41,955 bases of DNA from a virus (lineage: Duplodnaviria; Caudoviricetes): positions 1-41,955 of IMG/VR virus record IMGVR_UViG_3300043220_000019; one strand, 5' to 3'. Position 1 is the first letter of the stretch. Every line of letters begins with the position of its first letter. Of this stretch, positions 2,314 through 41,955 are shown piece after piece. The position numbers and the translations under genes are program-made. Under the pieces are notes generated by a model. It was not told the DNA's origin. It saw only the letters and a program-made list of their open reading frames with translations, and did not search any database.

Positions 2314-2634
2314 GTGCGATACATAATTTTGCTACTGCCGCTGATCTTGGCCGCATGTTCCACGGCGGCGAGCCCCAGCCCCACAACTGAGCCAGCAGAG
2401 ACACCAACCCCAGACGTGAGGCAATCCTATTACGAGCACGTTCTGGATATAGCCCGTGACCAACTCTCTGAAACAGACCCCGACATCTATTGCCGCCCTG
2501 ATTATTGGGAATTGTTGACGACGGATGATGTGGAGCCCGATCGCACCATCATTCAGCTTGCGCTGTCCGATAGCTGCAAAGAGGCTGGTCATCTCAGTTC
2601 CGCCGCAGAGTTCTCTGCCTATTACCCCGACTAG
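2314..2634 (+). CDS. Predicted lipoprotein (possible superinfection exclusion or moron gene)
   Basis: MRYIILLLPLILAA-C lipobox signal, Pro/Thr linker and acidic domain. It is the only convincing plus-strand gene and fills the gap between tail genes exactly. Confidence 0.75.
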   Translation: MRYIILLLPLILAACSTAASPSPTTEPAETPTPDVRQSYYEHVLDIARDQLSETDPDIYCRPDYWELLTTDDVEPDRTIIQLALSDSCKEAGHLSSAAEFSAYYPD

Positions 2635-3038
2635 CTCCATGCCGGCAGCGTCCCGTTCTCCAGCAGCGCCGGCGCCGCCCACACCATCGAGCCGTCCGTA
2701 GCGCGCACGACATCGTAGGCGCTGAACAGCACCTCATTGTTGAGGTCCTGGTCGCTGATGGTAAGCGCGACGGTTCTGCCCACTGAGGTAGTACCCACGT
2801 TCTTGAACACGTCATGGCTCTCGTCGTCGGCGGGGTTCCAGATGCCATTGAGCGTCAGGCTAAAGTCTCCCAAAAGTAGCTGGCGCTCTATCGCTGACTT
2901 GTCCAGCCCCGTCATATCCTGCACGCCGTTCGACATAGATAGGTCTAGGTTGGTGACGTCGTTCTTGATAGCCCGCCCGGAGCCGCCGTCGTCATCGACG
3001 GTGCAGGTCGTCCAGGCCATCCCTGTTTGCTTAGCCAT
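2631..3038 (-). CDS. Tail tube-like protein, paralog 3
   Basis: 135 aa with NDVTNLDLSM...QDMTGLDKSAIERQLLLGDFSLTLNG. Beta-rich and upstream of the chaperone. Confidence 0.75.
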   Translation of the reverse strand: MAKQTGMAWTTCTVDDDGGSGRAIKNDVTNLDLSMSNGVQDMTGLDKSAIERQLLLGDFSLTLNGIWNPADDESHDVFKNVGTTSVGRTVALTISDQDLNNEVLFSAYDVVRATDGSMVWAAPALLENGTLPAWS

Positions 3039-3041
3039 CGC

Positions 3042-3455
3042 TTAACTCCACGCCGGGATAGCGCCGCCCCCGAGCTGGCCGTTGGCGGTGACGATGAACG
3101 ATCCGTCAGCCGCACGCGCTCTGGAGACAGTCGGGAACACACACTCGTTGTTAAGGTTCTGGCTGCTGATCGTGAGCGCCGTTGAGCGGGTTGCGGTTGC
3201 AGCTACGTTGGTATTCTTGAACACGCTGAACTCTGAGTTGGCAGCCGCGTCGTTGAAGACCAGGGTGAGGTCGAGACTGTAGTCCGCCAGGAGTAGCAGC
3301 CTCTCCATCGCCACCTTGTCTATACCCGTTATGTCCTGAGCACCGTTCGTCATGGACAGGTCGAGGTTGGTGACGTCGTTGATGAGCGTTTGCAGCGCGT
3401 CACCTGAACTGTCGATTGAGCAGGTGGTCCAAGCCGTTCCGCTTTCCTTAGCCAT
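3042..3455 (-). CDS. Tail tube-like protein, paralog 2
   Basis: 137 aa, aligns end to end with both neighbours. Confidence 0.75.
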   Translation of the reverse strand: MAKESGTAWTTCSIDSSGDALQTLINDVTNLDLSMTNGAQDITGIDKVAMERLLLLADYSLDLTLVFNDAAANSEFSVFKNTNVAATATRSTALTISSQNLNNECVFPTVSRARAADGSFIVTANGQLGGGAIPAWS

Positions 3456-3872
3456 CTACGTAGTCCACGCTGGGAGTGTGCCGCTTGAAAGCTGACCGTT
3501 GGCGGAAGTGATGAACGAACCGTCAGCCGCCCTAGCCCTAGAGACGGTCGGGAACACGATAATGGCGTTCATCTTCTGGGCGCTGATCGTTAACTCTGAT
3601 TCACGCGCCGCCGTTGCCGCAACGTTGGTGTTCTTGAATACGGAGAACTCCGAATCGGTGCCTGCGTCGTTGAACACACACGTAAGGTCAAGGCTGTAAT
3701 CGGCCAGCAAAAGCAGCCGCTCAATAGCTACCTTGTCTATGCCGGTCACGTCCTGCACCCCGTTGCTCATCGACAGGTCCAGGTTGGTTACATCATTCAT
3801 TAGGTCCATGAGCGCCCCGGCGGAGTTGTCCACCTTGCAGAGCGTCCAGCCTACTCCACTTTCCTTTGCCAT
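3456..3872 (-). CDS. Tail tube-like protein, paralog 1
   Basis: 138 aa with RBS GAGGAG. About 74% identical to 3042-3455 by manual count. Confidence 0.75.
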   Translation of the reverse strand: MAKESGVGWTLCKVDNSAGALMDLMNDVTNLDLSMSNGVQDVTGIDKVAIERLLLLADYSLDLTCVFNDAGTDSEFSVFKNTNVAATAARESELTISAQKMNAIIVFPTVSRARAADGSFITSANGQLSSGTLPAWTT

Positions 3873-20846: not shown

Positions 20847-21322
20847 GTCCGACCAGCCAAAACGTGTTGCACGGCACCACGCGAGACGCCGATATCTCTA
20901 GCAATAATCCGTTGTGATCGTCCTTCCTGTGTCAACGCACGGATTAGGGCAACGCGCTCATTATTCAGCACCGCCCGAACATGAGCCTCCCCACGAGGCC
21001 TGCGCTCGGGATAGAGGCGCGAACCGTTGCGCTCCCCAAGCGCCGCTCGTCCTTTCGCATCACGATCCGCTATATTATCTGCGTTGGTGCCGATAAATAG
21101 ATGAACTGGATTCAAGCACGGCGGATTGTCGCAATGATGGCAGACAAGAAAGCCATCAGGAATCGGGCCGATTGCCTGCTCGTATGCCCAACGGTGCGCT
21201 CGTCTCATGCCGTCCGGCGTTCTCACGAGGCCGTAACCATCGGTATCACGAGCACCTTGCCATTCCATACAATCGCCAACCCTCAACACGTTGTCTTGTA
21301 GCTTAGCTGGTAGCATGTTCAA
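20819..21322 (-). CDS. HNH endonuclease with C-terminal HTH
   Basis: CMEWQG...GYG...RAHR...VCHHCDNPPCLNPVHLFIGTNADN. Confidence 0.9.
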   Translation of the reverse strand: MNMLPAKLQDNVLRVGDCMEWQGARDTDGYGLVRTPDGMRRAHRWAYEQAIGPIPDGFLVCHHCDNPPCLNPVHLFIGTNADNIADRDAKGRAALGERNGSRLYPERRPRGEAHVRAVLNNERVALIRALTQEGRSQRIIARDIGVSRGAVQHVLAGRTWKTVGGAT

Positions 21323-22529
21323 GCACTGCCTTCCGACCCGTAAACTCTTCCCATCGTCGAACTGCTACATCAACATAGCGGCCTTCGATTTCCATGCCGT
21401 AGCATCGGCGCCCTAGGCGCTCGGCGGCGATCATGGTGGTGCCGGAGCCAAGGAAGGGGTCGATCACGAGATCGTTCGTCTTGCTGCTGTTCGTAATCGC
21501 TCGTTCACAGAGCGCGACTGGTTTCATCGTTGGGTGATCATTCGAGGCCGCAGGCTTGTCAGCTTCCCAGATCGAGCTTTCGCTTCGCGAACCCGCCCAA
21601 CTCGTCGAGCCCTTCCAACCGTAGGCGATCGGCTCGTGCTGATAGTGGTAATGAGACCGACCAATACTGAAGTGGTGCTTGGCCCACACCAACCATTGCC
21701 GTGGAGGAATCCCTGCCGATTCCAGGGCTCCCAAGAGCCGAGCGCCCAACGGGCCGGGCGGCGCGAAGACGTAAGCATCTCCTTTAAGAGGCCAAGCAGT
21801 AAATGCGACCGTCCAGAAGGTGACCTGATCATCTCCGAGATCGTCGTTAGCGATCGGTATGTCGGGCCGATTCCTGTTGCCCCATTTAGGGTTGCCACCG
21901 CCAGCGCCCTCATACCCGACGCCATAGGGTGGGTCGGTCACCATCAGCCGCGCCTTCTCCCCCGCCATCAGCCGCGCCACGTCGCCTGCGTCCGTCGAGT
22001 CCCCGCACATCACCCGGTGATCGCCGCACATCCACACATCGCCCCTCTTCGACACCGCCTCCGCTTTCGGTACGGCATCGGGGTCGGTCAGCCCCTCCTG
22101 CGCACCGTTCAAGCCAGCACCTCGCGCTACGTCCTCCAGCAGCGCCGTCACCGCGTCGCTCCCAGGTTGCACGTCTGCTAGCAACGACTCCAGCGCGTCC
22201 TTCGCCGTCGCCGCCATGCCCGCCAAAGGGTCCAGCGTCGCCAGCACCAGCGCCTCCTCCTCCGGGGTGAGCTCGACATACTTGACCGGGATCTTCGGCT
22301 CCTGCCGGCTGATCGCCAGTGATACCCGCAGGTGCCCGTCAACGACGTGGCCGGTGATCTTGTTGACGATGACCTCCTGCACCCACCCCACCTCGTCTAA
22401 CACGCCGCTGAGCGCGTCTTGCTGCGCCTTTGGATGTATCCGCCAGTTCTTCGGGTTAGCTAGAAGCTGGTCCGGCGCCTCGTCCCCGTGGCCAACGATG
22501 CGGTTACGCCAAGCAGTTGCTGCCATCAT
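21303..22529 (-). CDS. ParB-like N-terminal domain fused to N6A/N4C DNA methyltransferase (beta class)
   Basis: NPKNWRIH...VVDGHLR (ParB-like), then TDPPY, HPTMKPV and DPFLGSGTT. Confidence 0.92.
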   Translation of the reverse strand: MMAATAWRNRIVGHGDEAPDQLLANPKNWRIHPKAQQDALSGVLDEVGWVQEVIVNKITGHVVDGHLRVSLAISRQEPKIPVKYVELTPEEEALVLATLDPLAGMAATAKDALESLLADVQPGSDAVTALLEDVARGAGLNGAQEGLTDPDAVPKAEAVSKRGDVWMCGDHRVMCGDSTDAGDVARLMAGEKARLMVTDPPYGVGYEGAGGGNPKWGNRNRPDIPIANDDLGDDQVTFWTVAFTAWPLKGDAYVFAPPGPLGARLLGALESAGIPPRQWLVWAKHHFSIGRSHYHYQHEPIAYGWKGSTSWAGSRSESSIWEADKPAASNDHPTMKPVALCERAITNSSKTNDLVIDPFLGSGTTMIAAERLGRRCYGMEIEGRYVDVAVRRWEEFTGRKAVLEHATS

Positions 22530-28554: not shown

Positions 28555-28908
28555 CTAACCACGTTGCTTGGCTTTCGCTAGCCCGCCGGCCTGCCCAGCA
28601 CGGCGGTTATTCTCCCGCCTCTCCTCCAGGGATTTCCGTGACGGGTTGTACTCCAGATAATCGTGGATGGCGTACCCTGTGCCGTTCCTCTCCCACAACC
28701 CCACCTCAACTAGCCGGTCGGCCAGCTTCCTGGCACGGGCACGGGTGTACTGGCCCAATCCAGCCAGTGACGCATCCGGTATCGCCCCGTCCGTCAAGTG
28801 CTGGGCCGCGTAACACAGCCCCGCTACGTGGAGCCACGCTGCTGCTTGCCCGGCGGCCTGTACCTTTGGATGAGTGGCAAACTCGTCACTAACCTTTACC
28901 CAGCTCAC
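28555..28908 (-). CDS. Phage replication initiator-like protein (N-terminal winged-helix only; possibly truncated)
   Basis: WVKVSDEFATHPKV...TDGAIP...LVEVGLW...IHDYLEYNPS...GQAGGLAKA. Confidence 0.7.
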   Translation of the reverse strand: MSWVKVSDEFATHPKVQAAGQAAAWLHVAGLCYAAQHLTDGAIPDASLAGLGQYTRARARKLADRLVEVGLWERNGTGYAIHDYLEYNPSRKSLEERRENNRRAGQAGGLAKAKQRG

Positions 28909-29741
28909 GCCGTTGCCCTCCGCACCGCCTGCGCGATCGCTCGCCCCATCGCCATCGGGACACCATTGCCGATGACCGACCGCTTGCCGTGCATGGTGAA
29001 GGGCATCTCCTTGGTGAAGTCGCGGGGCAGGCCCATCGCCTCACAGGCGTCCTCGATGGGGAGGACCGAACCCATGCCAGGGAGCGGCCCGCCGCCCTTC
29101 TCCTTGCTCCGCACCCGCGCACCACTGGACGCTACGCGGGCATCGGCGACGACGCTTCTGTGAACACGAGACCCGTGTGGTAGGACACCGCCCTTGCCGT
29201 GCGTGCGCTTGACTTTACCGCTTCCACCGACAGCAACCGGAACCTGCCTGCTATCGGCGACTATCGAACGCTCGGTGTCCAGCTCCATCAGCGCCACCCA
29301 CGGGATGTCCAGCGGCCTACCGTCGAGTGTGCCGAACGAGAACCGGCGTGGCCGCGGCTGCACACCCCCAACCCACTTGTCCCGCACCATCGCCGCCCAC
29401 GTCTCGAAACCTGCAACATGGGGTATCGGCGCATCCGGCACATTCTCCATGAGGAACCAGAAAGGGCCCGCCTCGGCCACGACCCGCTCGAACTCCGGTA
29501 TCAGGTTGCCGAAGCGCGGCTGGTGGCCGTTGTGCTTGATGAGGTGGCGGAGAGCTGAGAACGCCTGACACGGTGGTCCGCCTATCACGCCCTCGAACAC
29601 ACCCGTCGGCGGATGAAACGTGCGGATGTCGCCGCCCCACAACAGATCCGGCCCACGCACGACGCAGTAACCCTCCTCCTCGAAAGCGCGGCCCAAGAGG
29701 TCGATGCCGGGGAAGATGGAGAGAACTAAACCGGGCTGCAC
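28905..29741 (-). CDS. C5 cytosine DNA methyltransferase
   Basis: SIFPGI, GGPPCQAFS, MENV, QPRPR and IGNGVP motifs. Confidence 0.88.
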   Translation of the reverse strand: MQPGLVLSIFPGIDLLGRAFEEEGYCVVRGPDLLWGGDIRTFHPPTGVFEGVIGGPPCQAFSALRHLIKHNGHQPRFGNLIPEFERVVAEAGPFWFLMENVPDAPIPHVAGFETWAAMVRDKWVGGVQPRPRRFSFGTLDGRPLDIPWVALMELDTERSIVADSRQVPVAVGGSGKVKRTHGKGGVLPHGSRVHRSVVADARVASSGARVRSKEKGGGPLPGMGSVLPIEDACEAMGLPRDFTKEMPFTMHGKRSVIGNGVPMAMGRAIAQAVRRATA

Positions 29742-29747
29742 CGATGC

Positions 29748-30056
29748 TTACTCCAGTCCGCCAGCTTCACCAGCGCCTTGCAGCCGCCGCACAGGTGGGC
29801 GTAGCGACGCCGGCCCAGGATCTTCAGCCCCAGCCGCCACTTCGCGTACTTCACCAGCGGCGAGTTCGCCATCACGTCTCCCGTTCTTGCAGTTGCAGCA
29901 GTCCTTCAAGTGATAGCGCACCCCAGTCAGGCCCATCGATATCTTCTCCGCGATCTCCTTCTGGAGGAGTCCTGCCTGTCGTAGTTGTACGATCCGCTGG
30001 TGCAGACGTATCGTGTCAGCGTTGGGCTGGTAGAGGCCAAAGGCACGCCTTCTCAT
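29748..30056 (-). CDS. HTH DNA-binding protein
   Basis: IVQLRQAGLLQKEIAEKISMGLTGVRYHL. Confidence 0.65.
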   Translation of the reverse strand: MRRRAFGLYQPNADTIRLHQRIVQLRQAGLLQKEIAEKISMGLTGVRYHLKDCCNCKNGRRDGELAAGEVREVAAGAEDPGPASLRPPVRRLQGAGEAGGLE

Positions 30057-30093
30057 GGCTCCCCCTGCGGGGGCTTGCCCTGGGGAAGAGGGG

Positions 30094-30738
30094 TCATCGG
30101 AGAATCACCGCCATGAGTTGCCTCCCGATGTATTCCGTGTAGGCGGGCGGGATGGCCTGGCTCAAGTCATTGCCCGTCATCCAGTCGATGCCCATCGCCT
30201 CCGGCCCCACGTAGGAGCCGATGTCGCCCACGACCGTCACGAAGCCGCCAGCATCCCAGTGGCCGCGACGGTTCTTCTTCCGGCGGTTGACGCGGGTTAG
30301 ATGCCCCGGGTGGTCCTGCTTCCAAAGGAAGGCGTTGCTCTCGAAGATGCGGTGGCGGTAGCTCCGCAGGCCGAACGGCGCCGCGCACAAGACGAGATCA
30401 CGCCTGAGCGGCGCGCCGATGACATTCTCAATGACCCATAGAGCGCCCGAGGATTCCAGCCTCGCCCGGGTGGCTCCTACCAAGTCCTCATAGCCCGAAA
30501 CATCGACCACGCTCTTGAGCGCCGTGTAGCGTTGGCACGGCGGACTAGCATGGATCACGTCGAAGCCGTCGAGCGGGAACGTCATCGCGTCGGCCCGCAC
30601 GAACTCGAACGGGTAGCGCGGCTGCGGATCAATGTCCACGCCTACGACCCGGAAGCCTGCACGATGGTAGCCCATCGATGCACCGCCGGCCTTACAGAAC
30701 AAGTCGAGCAGGATCGGCGTCGCCTTTTGCCCGCTCAT
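30094..30738 (-). CDS. Second C5 cytosine DNA methyltransferase (short type)
   Basis: LLDLFCKAGG, HASPPCQ, IENV, RHRIFES and SQAIPPAYTEYIG. Start reassigned to ATG 30738. Confidence 0.88.
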   Translation of the reverse strand: MSGQKATPILLDLFCKAGGASMGYHRAGFRVVGVDIDPQPRYPFEFVRADAMTFPLDGFDVIHASPPCQRYTALKSVVDVSGYEDLVGATRARLESSGALWVIENVIGAPLRRDLVLCAAPFGLRSYRHRIFESNAFLWKQDHPGHLTRVNRRKKNRRGHWDAGGFVTVVGDIGSYVGPEAMGIDWMTGNDLSQAIPPAYTEYIGRQLMAVILR

Positions 30739-31838
30739 CGCCCCTCCATGAACACCAGTAGGTCGTTCGCGCAGCCGCACGGCCCGCAGTCCAAGCCGGT
30801 GTGCTCCTCCGGGTGTGCCCCATGCCATGCCAGGCGCTCCGCCGCGATCTCCGGCGCCGACCAGCGCTGCACCGACACCCGCTCGCCCGACTCCACCCCC
30901 AACCTCTGCGCCAGCGCCGCCACCGTGGGGGCCTCGCCGTAAACCCCGTAGTGCGCCACCGCCGCCTCCATCGCCACCTTGCCGTCATCTAGGGACCGCC
31001 TGCCGATCGACTGCATCAGGCTCTTGGAGTCCGTCAGCTTCCCGATCTGTTCGACGACGTGAGTGTCCGATGTGACACAGATGGCCCAGATGTTGGCGTA
31101 GGCGTACAGAGTCCGGCGTGACGCCCCGAACCGCTCGTAGGCAGACTCATTCCAGACTTCGTGTCGTTCCTTGAACGTCCACACCGCCTTGCACTTCACC
31201 AGGAAGGACAGCCCTTGCCGCTTCTCAGCCGACTCGTATAACACCTGGAGTTGGTCGTCGGACAGGTCGGCCCAGTCGTCGGAAAGGGGAGCTGGTGGAG
31301 CGGAGGGGAGTCGAACCCCTGTACCGCCGGTTCCCTTGCGGGTTTTTCCTTTGGTCGAACCTTCCCGCCCCTCGCGTTGGATAGCAAGGCGCTTAGCCTC
31401 AGACTTCGATATAGTTGGCAGACCAGACTCCCGCCCTACCTCCCGCTGGCCATGTACCTCGAGCACTCGGCGCATTGGCAACTCGTCGCGTGCGACATCG
31501 GGCATCACCTCCTTCTGATATCTCGGATGCTTGACTATCCGCGTCCCCTTCGGGTTCCGCACGATGTAGTAGCCGTCCGCGATTTCGTCTGTGTAGCCTT
31601 CAGTCGTGACGGCCTTATGGTGCGGCGGACATAAACACTGGATGTTGTCGGGGTCGTCTCGCCTCTCCGGTGAGCCGCCCATGCCGCGAGGGTCTACGTG
31701 GTGGTGCTCCACGTCCAAGCGGCCGCACCAGCACTCGTGAAACTCCGGCGACGACGGGAACGGGCACCACTCGATGCGGCACATCGGCTCGCGCTCTAGC
31801 CCCTCTGCGGGTGCGGGGTGCGTAGATGTGCCGGTCAC
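30735..31838 (-). CDS. Multi-domain protein: HNH-like N-terminus, linker, helical C-terminal domain
   Basis: HHHVDPRGMGGS...NIQCLCPPHH is HNH-like. The ORF is open across the embedded tmRNA-like element. Confidence 0.65.
   Translation of the reverse strand: MTGTSTHPAPAEGLEREPMCRIEWCPFPSSPEFHECWCGRLDVEHHHVDPRGMGGSPERRDDPDNIQCLCPPHHKAVTTEGYTDEIADGYYIVRNPKGTRIVKHPRYQKEVMPDVARDELPMRRVLEVHGQREVGRESGLPTISKSEAKRLAIQREGREGSTKGKTRKGTGGTGVRLPSAPPAPLSDDWADLSDDQLQVLYESAEKRQGLSFLVKCKAVWTFKERHEVWNESAYERFGASRRTLYAYANIWAICVTSDTHVVEQIGKLTDSKSLMQSIGRRSLDDGKVAMEAAVAHYGVYGEAPTVAALAQRLGVESGERVSVQRWSAPEIAAERLAWHGAHPEEHTGLDCGPCGCANDLLVFMEGR
31293..31371 (-). ncRNA. Minimal tmRNA-like RNA (tRNA-like domain only)
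   Basis: GGGGCGG GAAGGUUCGA CCAAAGGAAAAACCCGCAAGGGAACCGGCGG UAC AGGGG UUCGACU CCCCU CCGCUCC ACCA: 7-bp acceptor stem with G3-U, stemless D-loop, perfect T-arm and encoded CCA. Confidence 0.75.
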
Positions 31839-31996
31839 GCTCTACGCTTCCTTCCCGTGCGCTTGGTGATAGGGTATTTTACGAAGGGGTTTTCTCCCGG
31901 CTCACCAGGATCAACCATTATGCCCTCAGCGTTACGCATCAGCGTGGTTTGGCTAGGCTCAAAGAGCCGCCCCAGCCATCGTAGAAGCCGTCTCAT
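31835..31996 (-). CDS. Hypothetical protein (53 aa)
   Basis: MRRLLRWLGRLFEPS..., coupled by ATGA/GTGA overlaps on both sides. Confidence 0.45.
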   Translation of the reverse strand: MRRLLRWLGRLFEPSQTTLMRNAEGIMVDPGEPGENPFVKYPITKRTGRKRRA

Positions 31997-32352
31997 CGGG
32001 ATAGCCTACGCTTCCTCAGCCGCGGCCGGCCACGAGTGCGTCGCATGATGACGTTCACCGGCTGCACGTGGTCTGACCGCACCACGACGGCGACGTGGCG
32101 GGCCTGTCCTCTCGGCCCCACGACCGTTTGGTGCGCGTACTCCGGCGCGTGGCCCCGCTTGTAGCGCAGGACGAAATGCTTGTGGCCTTGATGCCGGGCG
32201 AGGACTACGCCGTAGACCCGCCGGACAACACCCCTGTAGCGCACGTGGGTCGGGTCAGAGGGGGTCGGCGGCACCACTGGGCGGAACGGGGGGCCGCTGC
32301 CGTTACCGGCTACCTGGGGGGCTGATTGTGCTTCCGTAGCGGGATAGCTCAC
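31993..32352 (-). CDS. Hypothetical basic protein
   Basis: 119 aa, coupled on both sides. Confidence 0.45.
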   Translation of the reverse strand: MSYPATEAQSAPQVAGNGSGPPFRPVVPPTPSDPTHVRYRGVVRRVYGVVLARHQGHKHFVLRYKRGHAPEYAHQTVVGPRGQARHVAVVVRSDHVQPVNVIMRRTRGRPRLRKRRLSR

Positions 32353-32756
32353 GTCGCCTCGCTCGGTGCTTCCAGCAGCCAGCCCCGGCGTTGAGCCTCC
32401 GGTATCTCCTCAAACACCGTGCGGCCCGAAGGCGTCAGCATGTAGGGCAGGAACTCTTGCTCCAAGTCCACCAGCCCGAACTGGATCGCCTCAACCTTCG
32501 CCTTCAGATACCAGTACAGAGCGCGTAGCTTCTGCTTGCGCTCGCGGTCGTCTTCGTATCTCACCACGAGCCGGAACGCCATCCGGCCACCGTCCCACTC
32601 CAGCCCTGCCTCCAATGTCTCCTGCCCCTGGAAGCTACTCCAGCGGAAGCCCACGGCCCCGACCCTTTGCAGCAGCTCCTCTACCTGTTCCTTCGAGCGA
32701 TGGGACGGTACGGCGGTGTTGGCGTAGGACTGGAGGGCGCTGCCGCGTCTAGCCAT
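32349..32756 (-). CDS. Conserved phage hypothetical protein
   Basis: YANTAVPSHRSKEQVEELL...RALYWYLKAKVEAI...EQEFLPYM..PSGRTV. Confidence 0.7.
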   Translation of the reverse strand: MARRGSALQSYANTAVPSHRSKEQVEELLQRVGAVGFRWSSFQGQETLEAGLEWDGGRMAFRLVVRYEDDRERKQKLRALYWYLKAKVEAIQFGLVDLEQEFLPYMLTPSGRTVFEEIPEAQRRGWLLEAPSEAT

Positions 32757-32973
32757 GCCCATTCCCCCCTATCGTCGTCAACGGCGCGTACTTCGCCGCC
32801 GCAACCACCACCGCTATGCTCTGGGCCTGCGCGAACATCCCCTGGAAGGCTCCCCAGACAGTCGGGGCCACAGAGATCAGCACTAACGGCCCCGGCGCCA
32901 GCCCTTCAAGGAAGCCGATGGCCACCACGTTGGTCCAGTCGGGGAAGAACACTAGGGTAGCGGTGATGGTCAC
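32749..32973 (-). CDS. Small membrane protein
   Basis: 74 aa, hydrophobic, coupled. Confidence 0.45.
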   Translation of the reverse strand: MTITATLVFFPDWTNVVAIGFLEGLAPGPLVLISVAPTVWGAFQGMFAQAQSIAVVVAAAKYAPLTTIGGNGHG

Positions 32974-33242
32974 GACGCCTTTCCTGTCATTGGCGACCGC
33001 CGCCTTACTCTGTCGTGGTCTTCGTGCGCCTCGGCATGACCAACGAAATCCTGAGAGTCACAGGCGGAGGGGTGGCTGTAGAGAAGTATTCGCTTGAGCA
33101 CGCAGTCGTGATAGTTCGCCAGCTCTCGCACCCAGACCGTCTCAGGGATAAGGGTTCCCTCTGGCATAGTCGTGGGGTCAAAGTGAAAGCGGTAGCCATC
33201 ATATCGAATCACTGGCCCAAAGCGCCGTTGCGGGGCTTTCAT
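32970..33242 (-). CDS. Hypothetical protein
   Basis: 90 aa, coupled on both sides. Confidence 0.5.
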   Translation of the reverse strand: MKAPQRRFGPVIRYDGYRFHFDPTTMPEGTLIPETVWVRELANYHDCVLKRILLYSHPSACDSQDFVGHAEAHEDHDRVRRRSPMTGKAS

Positions 33243-33928
33243 TCCCCTGTCGCCTTTCCCGTGTCCTCCGTCAACTGCGCGTAGGCGTTGACGATCCGGC
33301 AGGCGTCCTCGAACGACTTGCCGCCCACCTCATGCCGCCGCACCTCCGCCAAGTAGGGCTGCGCCTGCTTGTACGTCCCACCCTTGTCCAGCCAGTGTTC
33401 CCGTATCGCCCCCTCACCATCGCTGGGCAGGCTCAGGGCGGCGCAGATCGCGGCGTGTGCGTCCTTGTCCGGCCATGATGTCGTCGCCTGGCCGAAGAGA
33501 GCGGAGCGGCCTTCATCGTTTGTGGGCTGATCCGACTGCGGCTTTGGTGCCAACGCCGGCGGCTTTGGTGGGGCACGACGCGCTGGCGGCTTCGGCGCTG
33601 GACGCGTTGCCGCCTGCATTTCGTCAGCGCTGGCGATGCCCTCCGCAGACCCGAAGCCCGCAAAGCCCAACGCCCGGCCGACAGCCGATGTCTCCGCAAC
33701 CTCTAGCGGGGCTTGGCCCTCGACGCTCGTTGCCTTCTTCATGGAGTGGGCGTGGCCGGTGAACGTTCCCGCCGCACACCTTACCGTTGCCCTGACAACG
33801 ACTTGCTCCGCATTGTCCTCGGTGATGGCCGTGGTGATCTGAACCTCTTGGCCGTTACGGTCTTTGTGCAACAGGGCTACCCGCTCGGCCACGGTGACGT
33901 ACTGGTTGCCGTGTATCGTTACTGGCAT
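33239..33928 (-). CDS. ssDNA-annealing/recombination protein (Rad52/Erf-like)
   Basis: MPVTIHGNQYVTVAERV...TGHA...EVAETSAVGRALGFAGFG...IASADEM and a Pro-rich linker. RBS GGAGG. Confidence 0.75.
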   Translation of the reverse strand: MPVTIHGNQYVTVAERVALLHKDRNGQEVQITTAITEDNAEQVVVRATVRCAAGTFTGHAHSMKKATSVEGQAPLEVAETSAVGRALGFAGFGSAEGIASADEMQAATRPAPKPPARRAPPKPPALAPKPQSDQPTNDEGRSALFGQATTSWPDKDAHAAICAALSLPSDGEGAIREHWLDKGGTYKQAQPYLAEVRRHEVGGKSFEDACRIVNAYAQLTEDTGKATGE

Positions 33929-41617: not shown

Positions 41618-41955
41618 CAGTTCATCATCCGTCTGATCTCAGGGGCGATGAGGTTGGCAAGCTCCATCGCTGTCCGTTCGTCGCCTGCGAAGACACCGTT
41701 GATATTGACTGTGAGGCCGCCCCCGCCCATCCGGGCGTCAGGGAGGATCGTCCCCGCCCGGTCCGGCACGAAGATCTCAGGCCGCTTCTCGCCGACCAAT
41801 ACCGCCTGGCCCGCTGAGACGGGTCCGCCGTGCAGGCGACCCTGGAAAAGTCCCGCCTGCTGAACGGTGATGTCAAAGCCCCGGAAGTTAGTCGTGACGC
41901 TCAGGGCTTGGTTTAGGCGCTCTAGGTTCTGGGCCCCTCTCAATATCTCCTCATT
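41617..41955 (-). CDS. Tail tape measure protein, C-terminal part
   Basis: In frame with 1-1725 through the 9-nt overlap (NEE-ILRGAQ...). Contains HGGPVSAGQAVLVGEKRPEIFVP, a typical tape measure C-terminal motif. Joined protein is about 684 aa. Confidence 0.9.
   Translation of the reverse strand, partial: NEEILRGAQNLERLNQALSVTTNFRGFDITVQQAGLFQGRLHGGPVSAGQAVLVGEKRPEIFVPDRAGTILPDARMGGGGLTVNINGVFAGDERTAMELANLIAPEIRRMMN

Follow-up and report, generated by a model that had tools for sequence, protein, structure and literature searches.

The locus considered here poses the question of what a sequence resembling the tRNA-like domain (TLD) of tmRNA is, and what it might do, inside an open reading frame of a phage. 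The window, meaning the whole stretch of DNA that was analyzed, is a virus record of 41,955 bases, which is rated 100% complete and contains terminase, portal, and capsid genes. An earlier note had drawn attention to a 79-nt element on the minus strand (31371–31293), proposing that it is a stand-alone tmRNA TLD hidden in a phage ORF and that it may represent an undescribed system. The element is a tag-less tmRNA tRNA-like domain and a real feature. It is a published kind of RNA, and what is unusual about it is its in-frame nested setting together with one defective helix.

The sequence and its coordinates are those given in the earlier note. The 7-bp acceptor stem is predicted to form between 31371–31365 (5′ strand), where G1 is 31371 and G3 belongs to the G·U wobble that serves as alanine determinant, and 31303–31297; the 3′ strand (31303–31293) continues through the discriminator A at 31296 to an encoded CCA. 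A stemless D-loop with the sequence GG-UUCGAC (31364–31355) retains the equivalents of U17 and G19 and lacks that of A15. Next lies the 5′ strand of helix P2a (31354–31348), in which three A residues in a row are mismatched with the 3′ strand (31330–31324); the 7 nt of the latter are identical to the corresponding strand in Mycobacterium phage DS6A, where the helix is intact. Between the two strands, an A-rich run precedes a 3-bp hairpin with a GCAA loop (31342–31333), which from the sequence and the family alignment appears to be a remnant of the mRNA-like domain region. A 3-nt UAC linker, with the equivalent of A334, and a 5-bp T-arm with a canonical T-loop occupy 31323–31304. When the element is aligned through its match to the Rfam tmRNA model (RF00023), counterparts of the SmpB contacts U17, G19, and A334 (PMC8363625) are all present. 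Predicted pairing probabilities are 0.93 for the acceptor stem and 0.82 for the T stem, and both stems occur in the MFE fold. The GCAA hairpin described in the earlier note is missing from the MFE structure. The folding energy of the 79-nt RNA is close to that of shuffled sequences (z −0.24), and energy alone gives no discrimination.

The identity of the element was examined with covariance models. RF00023 matched it from model position 1 to 374 with 322 positions replaced by 29 nt, so that both tmRNA ends are matched and the middle is deleted. The score (38.7 bits, E 3.6e-12) falls under the 47-bit cut-off, and this is the sole RF00023 match listed across the 42 kb. Ordinary 76-nt tRNAs of four control genomes score up to 45.3 bits with this model, so its score alone cannot tell a TLD from a tRNA. 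A family covariance model does separate them: built from 59 of 69 sequences, with the ten shortest or longest, this copy, and DS6A left out, it gave 59.9 bits (E 6e-14) for the 79-nt TLD and 59.2 for DS6A, against about 40 for tRNA-Ala controls, 30–41 for tmRNA 3′ ends, and 10.6 for the next match in the window. The tRNA model RF00005 gave 20.2 bits, below its cut-off of 29; ARAGORN reported no gene for the element, and the mt-tmRNA model RF02544 gave no match at E up to 10. In blastn searches of GenBank phages, coverage was at most 61%, the matches being confined to T-arm/acceptor parts of tRNAs, tmRNAs, and att sites; another member of the family gave no match.

Several classes could be set aside by their defining features. 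A tRNA-Ala would have a D stem and an anticodon stem-loop, which are lacking here, and RF00005 and ARAGORN were negative. A standard tmRNA shares both TLD ends with this RNA, but its mRNA-like domain, tag frame, and pseudoknots are absent. An mt-tmRNA is disfavored by the lack of a model match, a permuted two-piece tmRNA by the order of the halves (the 5′ half precedes the 3′ half, and the two pair), and an attachment-site remnant of ssrA or a tRNA by the presence of both ends and the absence of a PF00589 or PF00239 match. The features of the DS6A type were found: a G3·U70 acceptor, a discriminator A, a stemless D-loop ending in UCGAC, a short linker, one piece of about 65–90 nt with no tag frame, and a family-model score like that of DS6A and above that of tRNA-Ala. 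The model scores thus bore out the proposed identity as a stand-alone TLD, rather than a decayed tRNA-Ala or an att remnant.

The element belongs to a family of phage sequences. A strict pattern scan of IMG/VR returned 100 loci; 80 of 101 matches (these loci plus L101) passed a TLD-only filter, with lengths of 65–91 nt. G3 was present in 80/80, and this position was not fixed by the pattern, which did fix the U paired with it. A looser IMG/VR scan, with about 240 matching stretches estimated, listed 120 loci, of which 92 passed, 91 of them with G3. Together, the two scans yielded at least 125 distinct TLD-only relatives. The stem covariation that the earlier note had proposed to examine was found: in anchor-based counts over 69 sequences, the acceptor, T, and P2a stems each show all four types of pair, and in a model-fitted alignment of 90 matches 95% of cells are paired and both partners vary in 12 of the 17 pairs, a level reached by none of 500 shuffles; about 10 of these 90 matches are not family members, and the count is biased towards the model. 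Determinants for charging and for EF-Tu and SmpB binding are kept throughout the family. Of 69 members, 5 contain no stop triplet. Most members are intergenic, and six lie inside or beside phage tRNA arrays (L002, L012, L022, L050, L055, and L101). Patterns specific to the subfamily of the nested copy had no match in IMG/VR, and a single scan of JGI metagenomes returned one family member, unrelated and intergenic. A loose scan of genome contigs (an estimated 4400 stretches) recovered mostly other RNAs; 13 of the 120 loci listed passed the filter, and only about four of the listed loci look like clean TLD-only genes. TLD-only genes on bacterial MAG contigs were noted at L111:1496–1578, L143:1498–1583, L178, and L136:1498–1578, in Spirochaetaceae, Poribacteria (twice), and Actinomycetota. 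Eight ultra-short members of 65–67 nt (L010, L021, L030, L036, L048, L061, L088, and L099) have a small P2 hairpin only; their size matches that reported for plastid genes without a coding sequence (CDS).

The claim of an undescribed system fails: the TLD-only class has been published, and members of it are widespread in IMG/VR. The published case is a "TLD only" CDS-less tmRNA of phage DS6A (JN698994.1:28478–28560, tmID 11587; PMC4131195 and PMC11915505, citing Mao et al. 2009). According to PMC4131195, tmRNA is strongly inhibited by a molecule similar to it, whether or not that molecule can be charged, "perhaps by titrating SmpB"; in PMC11915505, inhibition of the endogenous tmRNA of E. coli is attributed to the DS6A form. 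The two texts disagree on whether the RNA tested was DS6A's own or "a similar molecule". The copy studied here resembles that of DS6A in being a one-piece TLD of about 80 nt with a G3·U acceptor, a stemless D-loop, and a T-arm, in having an A-run and a small hairpin in place of the mRNA domain, in the identity of the 3′ strand of P2a, in a nearly equal family-model score, and in being missed by ARAGORN. It differs in that the DS6A copy is intergenic (between gp33 and gp34), with P2a intact and no encoded CCA, whereas this one is nested in frame in a coding linker, with P2a broken and CCA encoded. With standard tmRNA (ssrA, RF00023) it shares both TLD halves, the alanine determinants, and the U17/G19/A334 equivalents (PMC8363625), but it has no pseudoknots, resume codon, or tag frame and scores below the gathering threshold. 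A TLD without a tag frame also characterizes the CDS-less organellar tmRNAs, namely the jakobid and oomycete mt-tmRNAs (RF02544) and the plastid genes of about 65 bp in Mallomonadaceae (PMC11915505); there, however, it is the organelle's only tmRNA, whereas a phage TLD would coexist with a full host tmRNA. The nesting has a counterpart in the tRNA-Sec gene within selB of Alphaproteobacteria (Mukai 2021, PMC8124441), a whole tRNA-type gene in frame in a protein ORF, whose processing is predicted to yield a nonstop mRNA and an either/or output. In selB the tRNA lies in a conserved C-terminal extension of its functional partner; here the passenger is optional and sits in a linker between domains, in a phage gene that has no known link to translation. 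Full and two-piece phage tmRNAs are a different form (PMC9004378). No published account of a widespread phage TLD-only family or of a nested copy was found in a search whose coverage mostly excludes subscription journals; the tmRNA database behind PMC11915505 may list more CDS-less phage entries.

In several respects this copy departs from its relatives. Its P2a, whose break the earlier note did not point out, has the pairing pattern 1100011, with three adjacent mismatches, and a duplex energy of −2.6 kcal/mol, compared with a family median of −6.9 and −12.2 for DS6A. Among the matches listed, a P2a as weak occurs in only 4 of 125 relatives, and at least four of the first five pairs form in 117/125, compared with two of five here; a continuous P2a is a typical family trait that lies outside the published TLD-only definition, and this copy lacks it. 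Its D-loop is the shortest in the family (equaled by 1 of the 125 listed), and the GUAC form of its linker is rare (4/125 listed). With 20–60 nt of flanking sequence, the predicted acceptor pairing drops to 0.0, and an alternative fold without the acceptor stem is 6–8 kcal/mol better in ViennaRNA, which models neither tertiary contacts nor proteins. The broken P2a, the short D-loop, and the predicted competing folds of the flanks count against activity of this copy.

The RNA lies, as had been stated, inside an ORF: a frame of 367 codons (31838–30735, minus strand; 349 codons from the ATG at 31784) that encodes an HNH-like domain, a variable linker, and a helical C-terminal domain. The TLD is on the same strand and in frame, covering the third base of codon 156 and codons 157–182, with 155 codons before it and 185 after. 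The HNH-like domain (residues about 37–92; 31730–31563) matches PHROG 144 (E 8e-7) and PHROG 740, and Pfam HNH_2 below its cut-off. The all-helical C-terminal domain (31289–30849) is conserved and has a weak, nonsignificant likeness to the ParB/Spo0J HTH; Foldseek gave no match for it at E 0.001 or better, and the Atlas rows lay below the bar for naming. In-frame nesting in an apparently translated linker is the less usual point of this copy: among 85 testable relatives listed, one has a same-sense frame that spans the RNA and extends 40 codons or more to both sides of it, a short, GC-rich frame.

Several observations bear on whether the linker is read. Fusions spanning it account for 9 of 10 C-terminal-domain homologues, which are long, and for 24 of 35 representatives in a wider set, in which the other 11 are short and start near the C-terminal domain. 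The distance between conserved residues across the linker varies from 86 to 161 aa in homologues, and at the DNA level two related loci (L351 and L352) have a single open frame across it. GC at third codon positions is 0.82 and 0.87 for the two domains of the host ORF and 0.52 over the RNA. Judged by the homologues, the linker appears to be translated; the 11 short representatives and the database gene call on this contig (P0001, 169 aa), which begins after the RNA, speak against this. Some features of the linker were noted separately. A possible nested micro-ORF of 20 aa in the +1 frame (31513–31436, ATG at 31498) follows a strong Shine-Dalgarno site; it contains Cys, and its start motif recurs at the starts of two further ORFs of the genome. 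An in-frame ATG at 31505 lies behind the same Shine-Dalgarno site, and a "KEESD" peptide in several relatives and in an allele from metagenome run X1 may be the same kind of hidden start. The peptide SKSEAKRL (31430–31390, minus strand) recurs in the distant homologues P0007–P0009, and the same region is predicted to pair with the 5′ end of the TLD.

Two of 57 database proteins, and no others, are compatible with the TLD pattern (shuffle mean 0.07): the peptide encoded by the RNA is found in P0003 and P0012 with 92% and 85% identity, respectively, both differ from the host ORF immediately upstream, and the C-terminal domain of P0012 is unrelated to that of the host ORF. Among contigs from metagenome run X2 (depth under 5), the alignment of contig 10 is confined to 31294–31371, where it has nine differences and beyond which its flanks are foreign; contig 9 parts from the window sequence immediately above 31371. 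Run X1 carries the label marine sediment metagenome; it contains 0.86 of the words of the window and may be its source, and none of the holders listed is an RNA data set. In X1, two contigs depart from the window at the border of the RNA, either just before it or just after it. Relatives without the RNA include L351, L352, sister alleles from the same run, and P0047, whose matched part is 90% identical to P0012. Judged by these alignments, the 79-nt TLD is a mobile passenger with exact ends, found in two foreign contigs and in three proteins. Protein scans of IMG/VR and of GTDB genomes yielded no close DNA relatives with their flanks; a wider alignment added two loci related to the host ORF, both without the RNA, and 401 genomes of one phylum contained only two weak matches to the N-terminal part of the protein.

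The substitutions among these copies gave an indication of constraint. All eight visible changes, four deduced from amino acids and four from contigs, are tolerated by the RNA model: the amino-acid changes map to the D-loop and to free positions of the T-loop, and the displayed base changes fall in loops or in a tolerated T-stem pair. The tolerated fraction expected is 38% of non-synonymous changes (rough p 0.02–0.06) and 62% in the displayed region (p 0.14), in a test with few changes, with rules for tolerated sites set in this analysis, and with five of the nine differences of X2 contig 10 falling outside it. The substitution pattern thus lends modest support to selection acting on the RNA. 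Over the P2 mismatch the peptide is shared by the three proteins, which means that they have two or more of the three A residues in common.

Other linkers of such HNH-fusion genes also suggest cargo. In P0018, a second HNH domain (HNH_3, PF13392) is inserted in the same linker at residues 198–241. The linker peptides of P0054 (about 115–150) and P0057 (about 105–132) fit a tRNA D-arm plus T-arm (2/57, shuffle mean 0.07), a pattern that was chosen after the peptides had been seen and that concerns the peptides alone; P0053 fits a T-arm only, at residues 1–20. A test of T-loop peptides alone across linker proteins was at chance (8 versus 6.2). These peptides suggest that tRNA-like cargo is held in other linkers of this gene type. 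P0053, P0054, and P0057 belong to a sister HNH-fusion family, and their tRNA-like peptides are often bracketed by a SAAAE…SAAAPS pair that may be an inverted repeat.

The function that we tentatively favor, as a possibility somewhat short of probable, is that of a tag-less mini-tmRNA of the DS6A type, excised from mRNA, alanylated, and serving as an SmpB decoy that dampens host trans-translation. No sigma-70 promoter-like site was found at 30500–33300, so the RNA would derive from the co-directional operon transcript. tmRNA precursors are matured by RNase P at the 5′ end and trimmed by exonucleases at the 3′ end (PMC3968760); RNase P cleavage and 3′ trimming would likewise release the 79-nt RNA at the expense of the mRNA. 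A given transcript would then be a source of the RNA or of the full-length protein but not of both, which is what Mukai proposed for tRNA-Sec nested in selB; the 5′ piece would remain as a nonstop mRNA for the HNH part. G3·U is read by AlaRS, and SmpB binds the D-loop/elbow (PMC3968760, PMC8363625); the released TLD would be charged with alanine through G3·U and would occupy SmpB. As there is no tag frame, the RNA could not mark proteins for degradation, and the likely net effect would be less tagging and decay of phage products. By analogy with the molecules of this type that the literature backs, an SmpB-decoy role for the 79-nt TLD is plausible.

Other readings were weighed against the SmpB decoy. 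The copy might be a decaying passenger, a once-active mini-tmRNA that recombined into a tolerant linker and now supplies mainly harmless spacer codons. Its broken P2a, shortest D-loop, variant linker, and flanks predicted to out-compete the acceptor stem would fit, as would the many relatives that lack the RNA, P0047, L351, L352, and the same-run alleles among them. Nevertheless, the acceptor stem, G3·U, T-arm, and CCA are all perfect, the peptide across the P2 mismatch is common to three proteins, 8/8 visible changes avoid constrained sites, and a copy with unrelated flanks keeps identical ends, so decay seems unlikely. An alanyl-TLD with SmpB and EF-Tu might instead enter stalled ribosomes, accept the peptide, and help to free the ribosome without marking phage proteins for degradation, a role that CDS-less organellar tmRNAs are supposed to have. 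Tag-free rescue of this kind is distinctly unlikely: there is no stop codon or template for finishing release, the sole experiment cited reports inhibition (PMC4131195, PMC11915505), and the mt-tmRNA model gives no match, even though the determinants for charging and for EF-Tu and SmpB are kept in the family and mitochondrial and some plastid tmRNAs are conserved without a tag frame (PMC11915505). A decayed tRNA-Ala, an attachment-site remnant, or a chance match would account for true tRNAs scoring as high on RF00023 and for the limited extent of the blastn matches; that account is extremely improbable given 20.2 bits on the tRNA model against 59.9 on the family model, the presence and complementarity of both tmRNA ends, the absence of tyrosine integrase and resolvase matches from a genome rated 100% complete, and the lack of a direct repeat flanking the TLD.

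Two further readings assign the RNA a role in regulation or in defense. The main role of the RNA could be that of an RNase P site within the mRNA, acting in cis as an either/or switch: cleavage would leave a nonstop mRNA for the HNH part, whose product would accumulate only when trans-translation is blocked, as with ArfA, and would uncouple the downstream methyltransferase genes. We regard this as improbable. The RNA sits just after the HNH-like domain, competing folds are predicted in the precursor, and two other linkers hold tRNA-like peptides; moreover, the same logic has been proposed for tRNA-Sec in selB (PMC8124441), and arfA is repressed via nonstop mRNA (PMC10107115). However, few members of the gene family carry the RNA, so coupling is not conserved; X2 contig 9 has changes in the alternative pairing with the 3′ flank; and most TLD-only relatives are intergenic. 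Alternatively, the RNA could be a decoy for defense systems that bind or cut tmRNA or tRNA, such as CoCoNuTs with SmpB-like domains. CoCoNuTs are predicted to bind tmRNA via SmpB-like OB folds (PMC11090510), and several family members lie in phage tRNA arrays; the targeting of tmRNA by CoCoNuTs is itself a prediction, and a defense decoy is, in our estimate, quite improbable. A broader scheme would join the SmpB decoy to the nonstop message: the linker would be a translated cargo bay for whole tRNA-type genes, holding the mini-tmRNA in three proteins and tRNA-like genes in at least two others, and excision by host RNase P would yield both, with the HNH protein accumulating once trans-translation is shut down. 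We give this scheme little chance; if true, it would make the locus a self-contained phage sensor and inhibitor of ribosome rescue.

As far as the literature search reaches, tag-less phage tmRNA in print is a single oddity, that of DS6A, compared with at least 125 distinct covarying sequences here. In the cases tested, TLD-only sequences fell below the Rfam cut-off or were missed by ARAGORN. The family suggests that an RNA directed at ribosome rescue is common among phages and goes unannotated. The copy studied here adds that RNA genes of this kind can lie concealed, in frame, in the linkers of proteins and can be transferred as modules with exact ends; annotation then misses either the RNA or the protein. 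The natural P2a defect offers a direct test of whether the helix is needed for SmpB binding and for inhibition.

The remaining observations concern the phage genome. It has no match to a tyrosine integrase (PF00589), a resolvase (PF00239), or smpB. A 9-nt terminal repeat occupies positions 1–9 and 41947–41955 of the window, and a long ORF (1725–1) continues in frame into 41943–41617; the latter indicates that the record, though classed as linear, is probably circularly permuted. The host ORF is immediately followed downstream by two C5 DNA methyltransferase-like genes (28905–30828, minus strand); an N6/N4 methyltransferase (21303–22529, minus strand) is found near the terminase genes. In the tail region (2631–3872, minus strand), three adjacent paralogous ORFs of 135–138 aa have near-identical N-termini.
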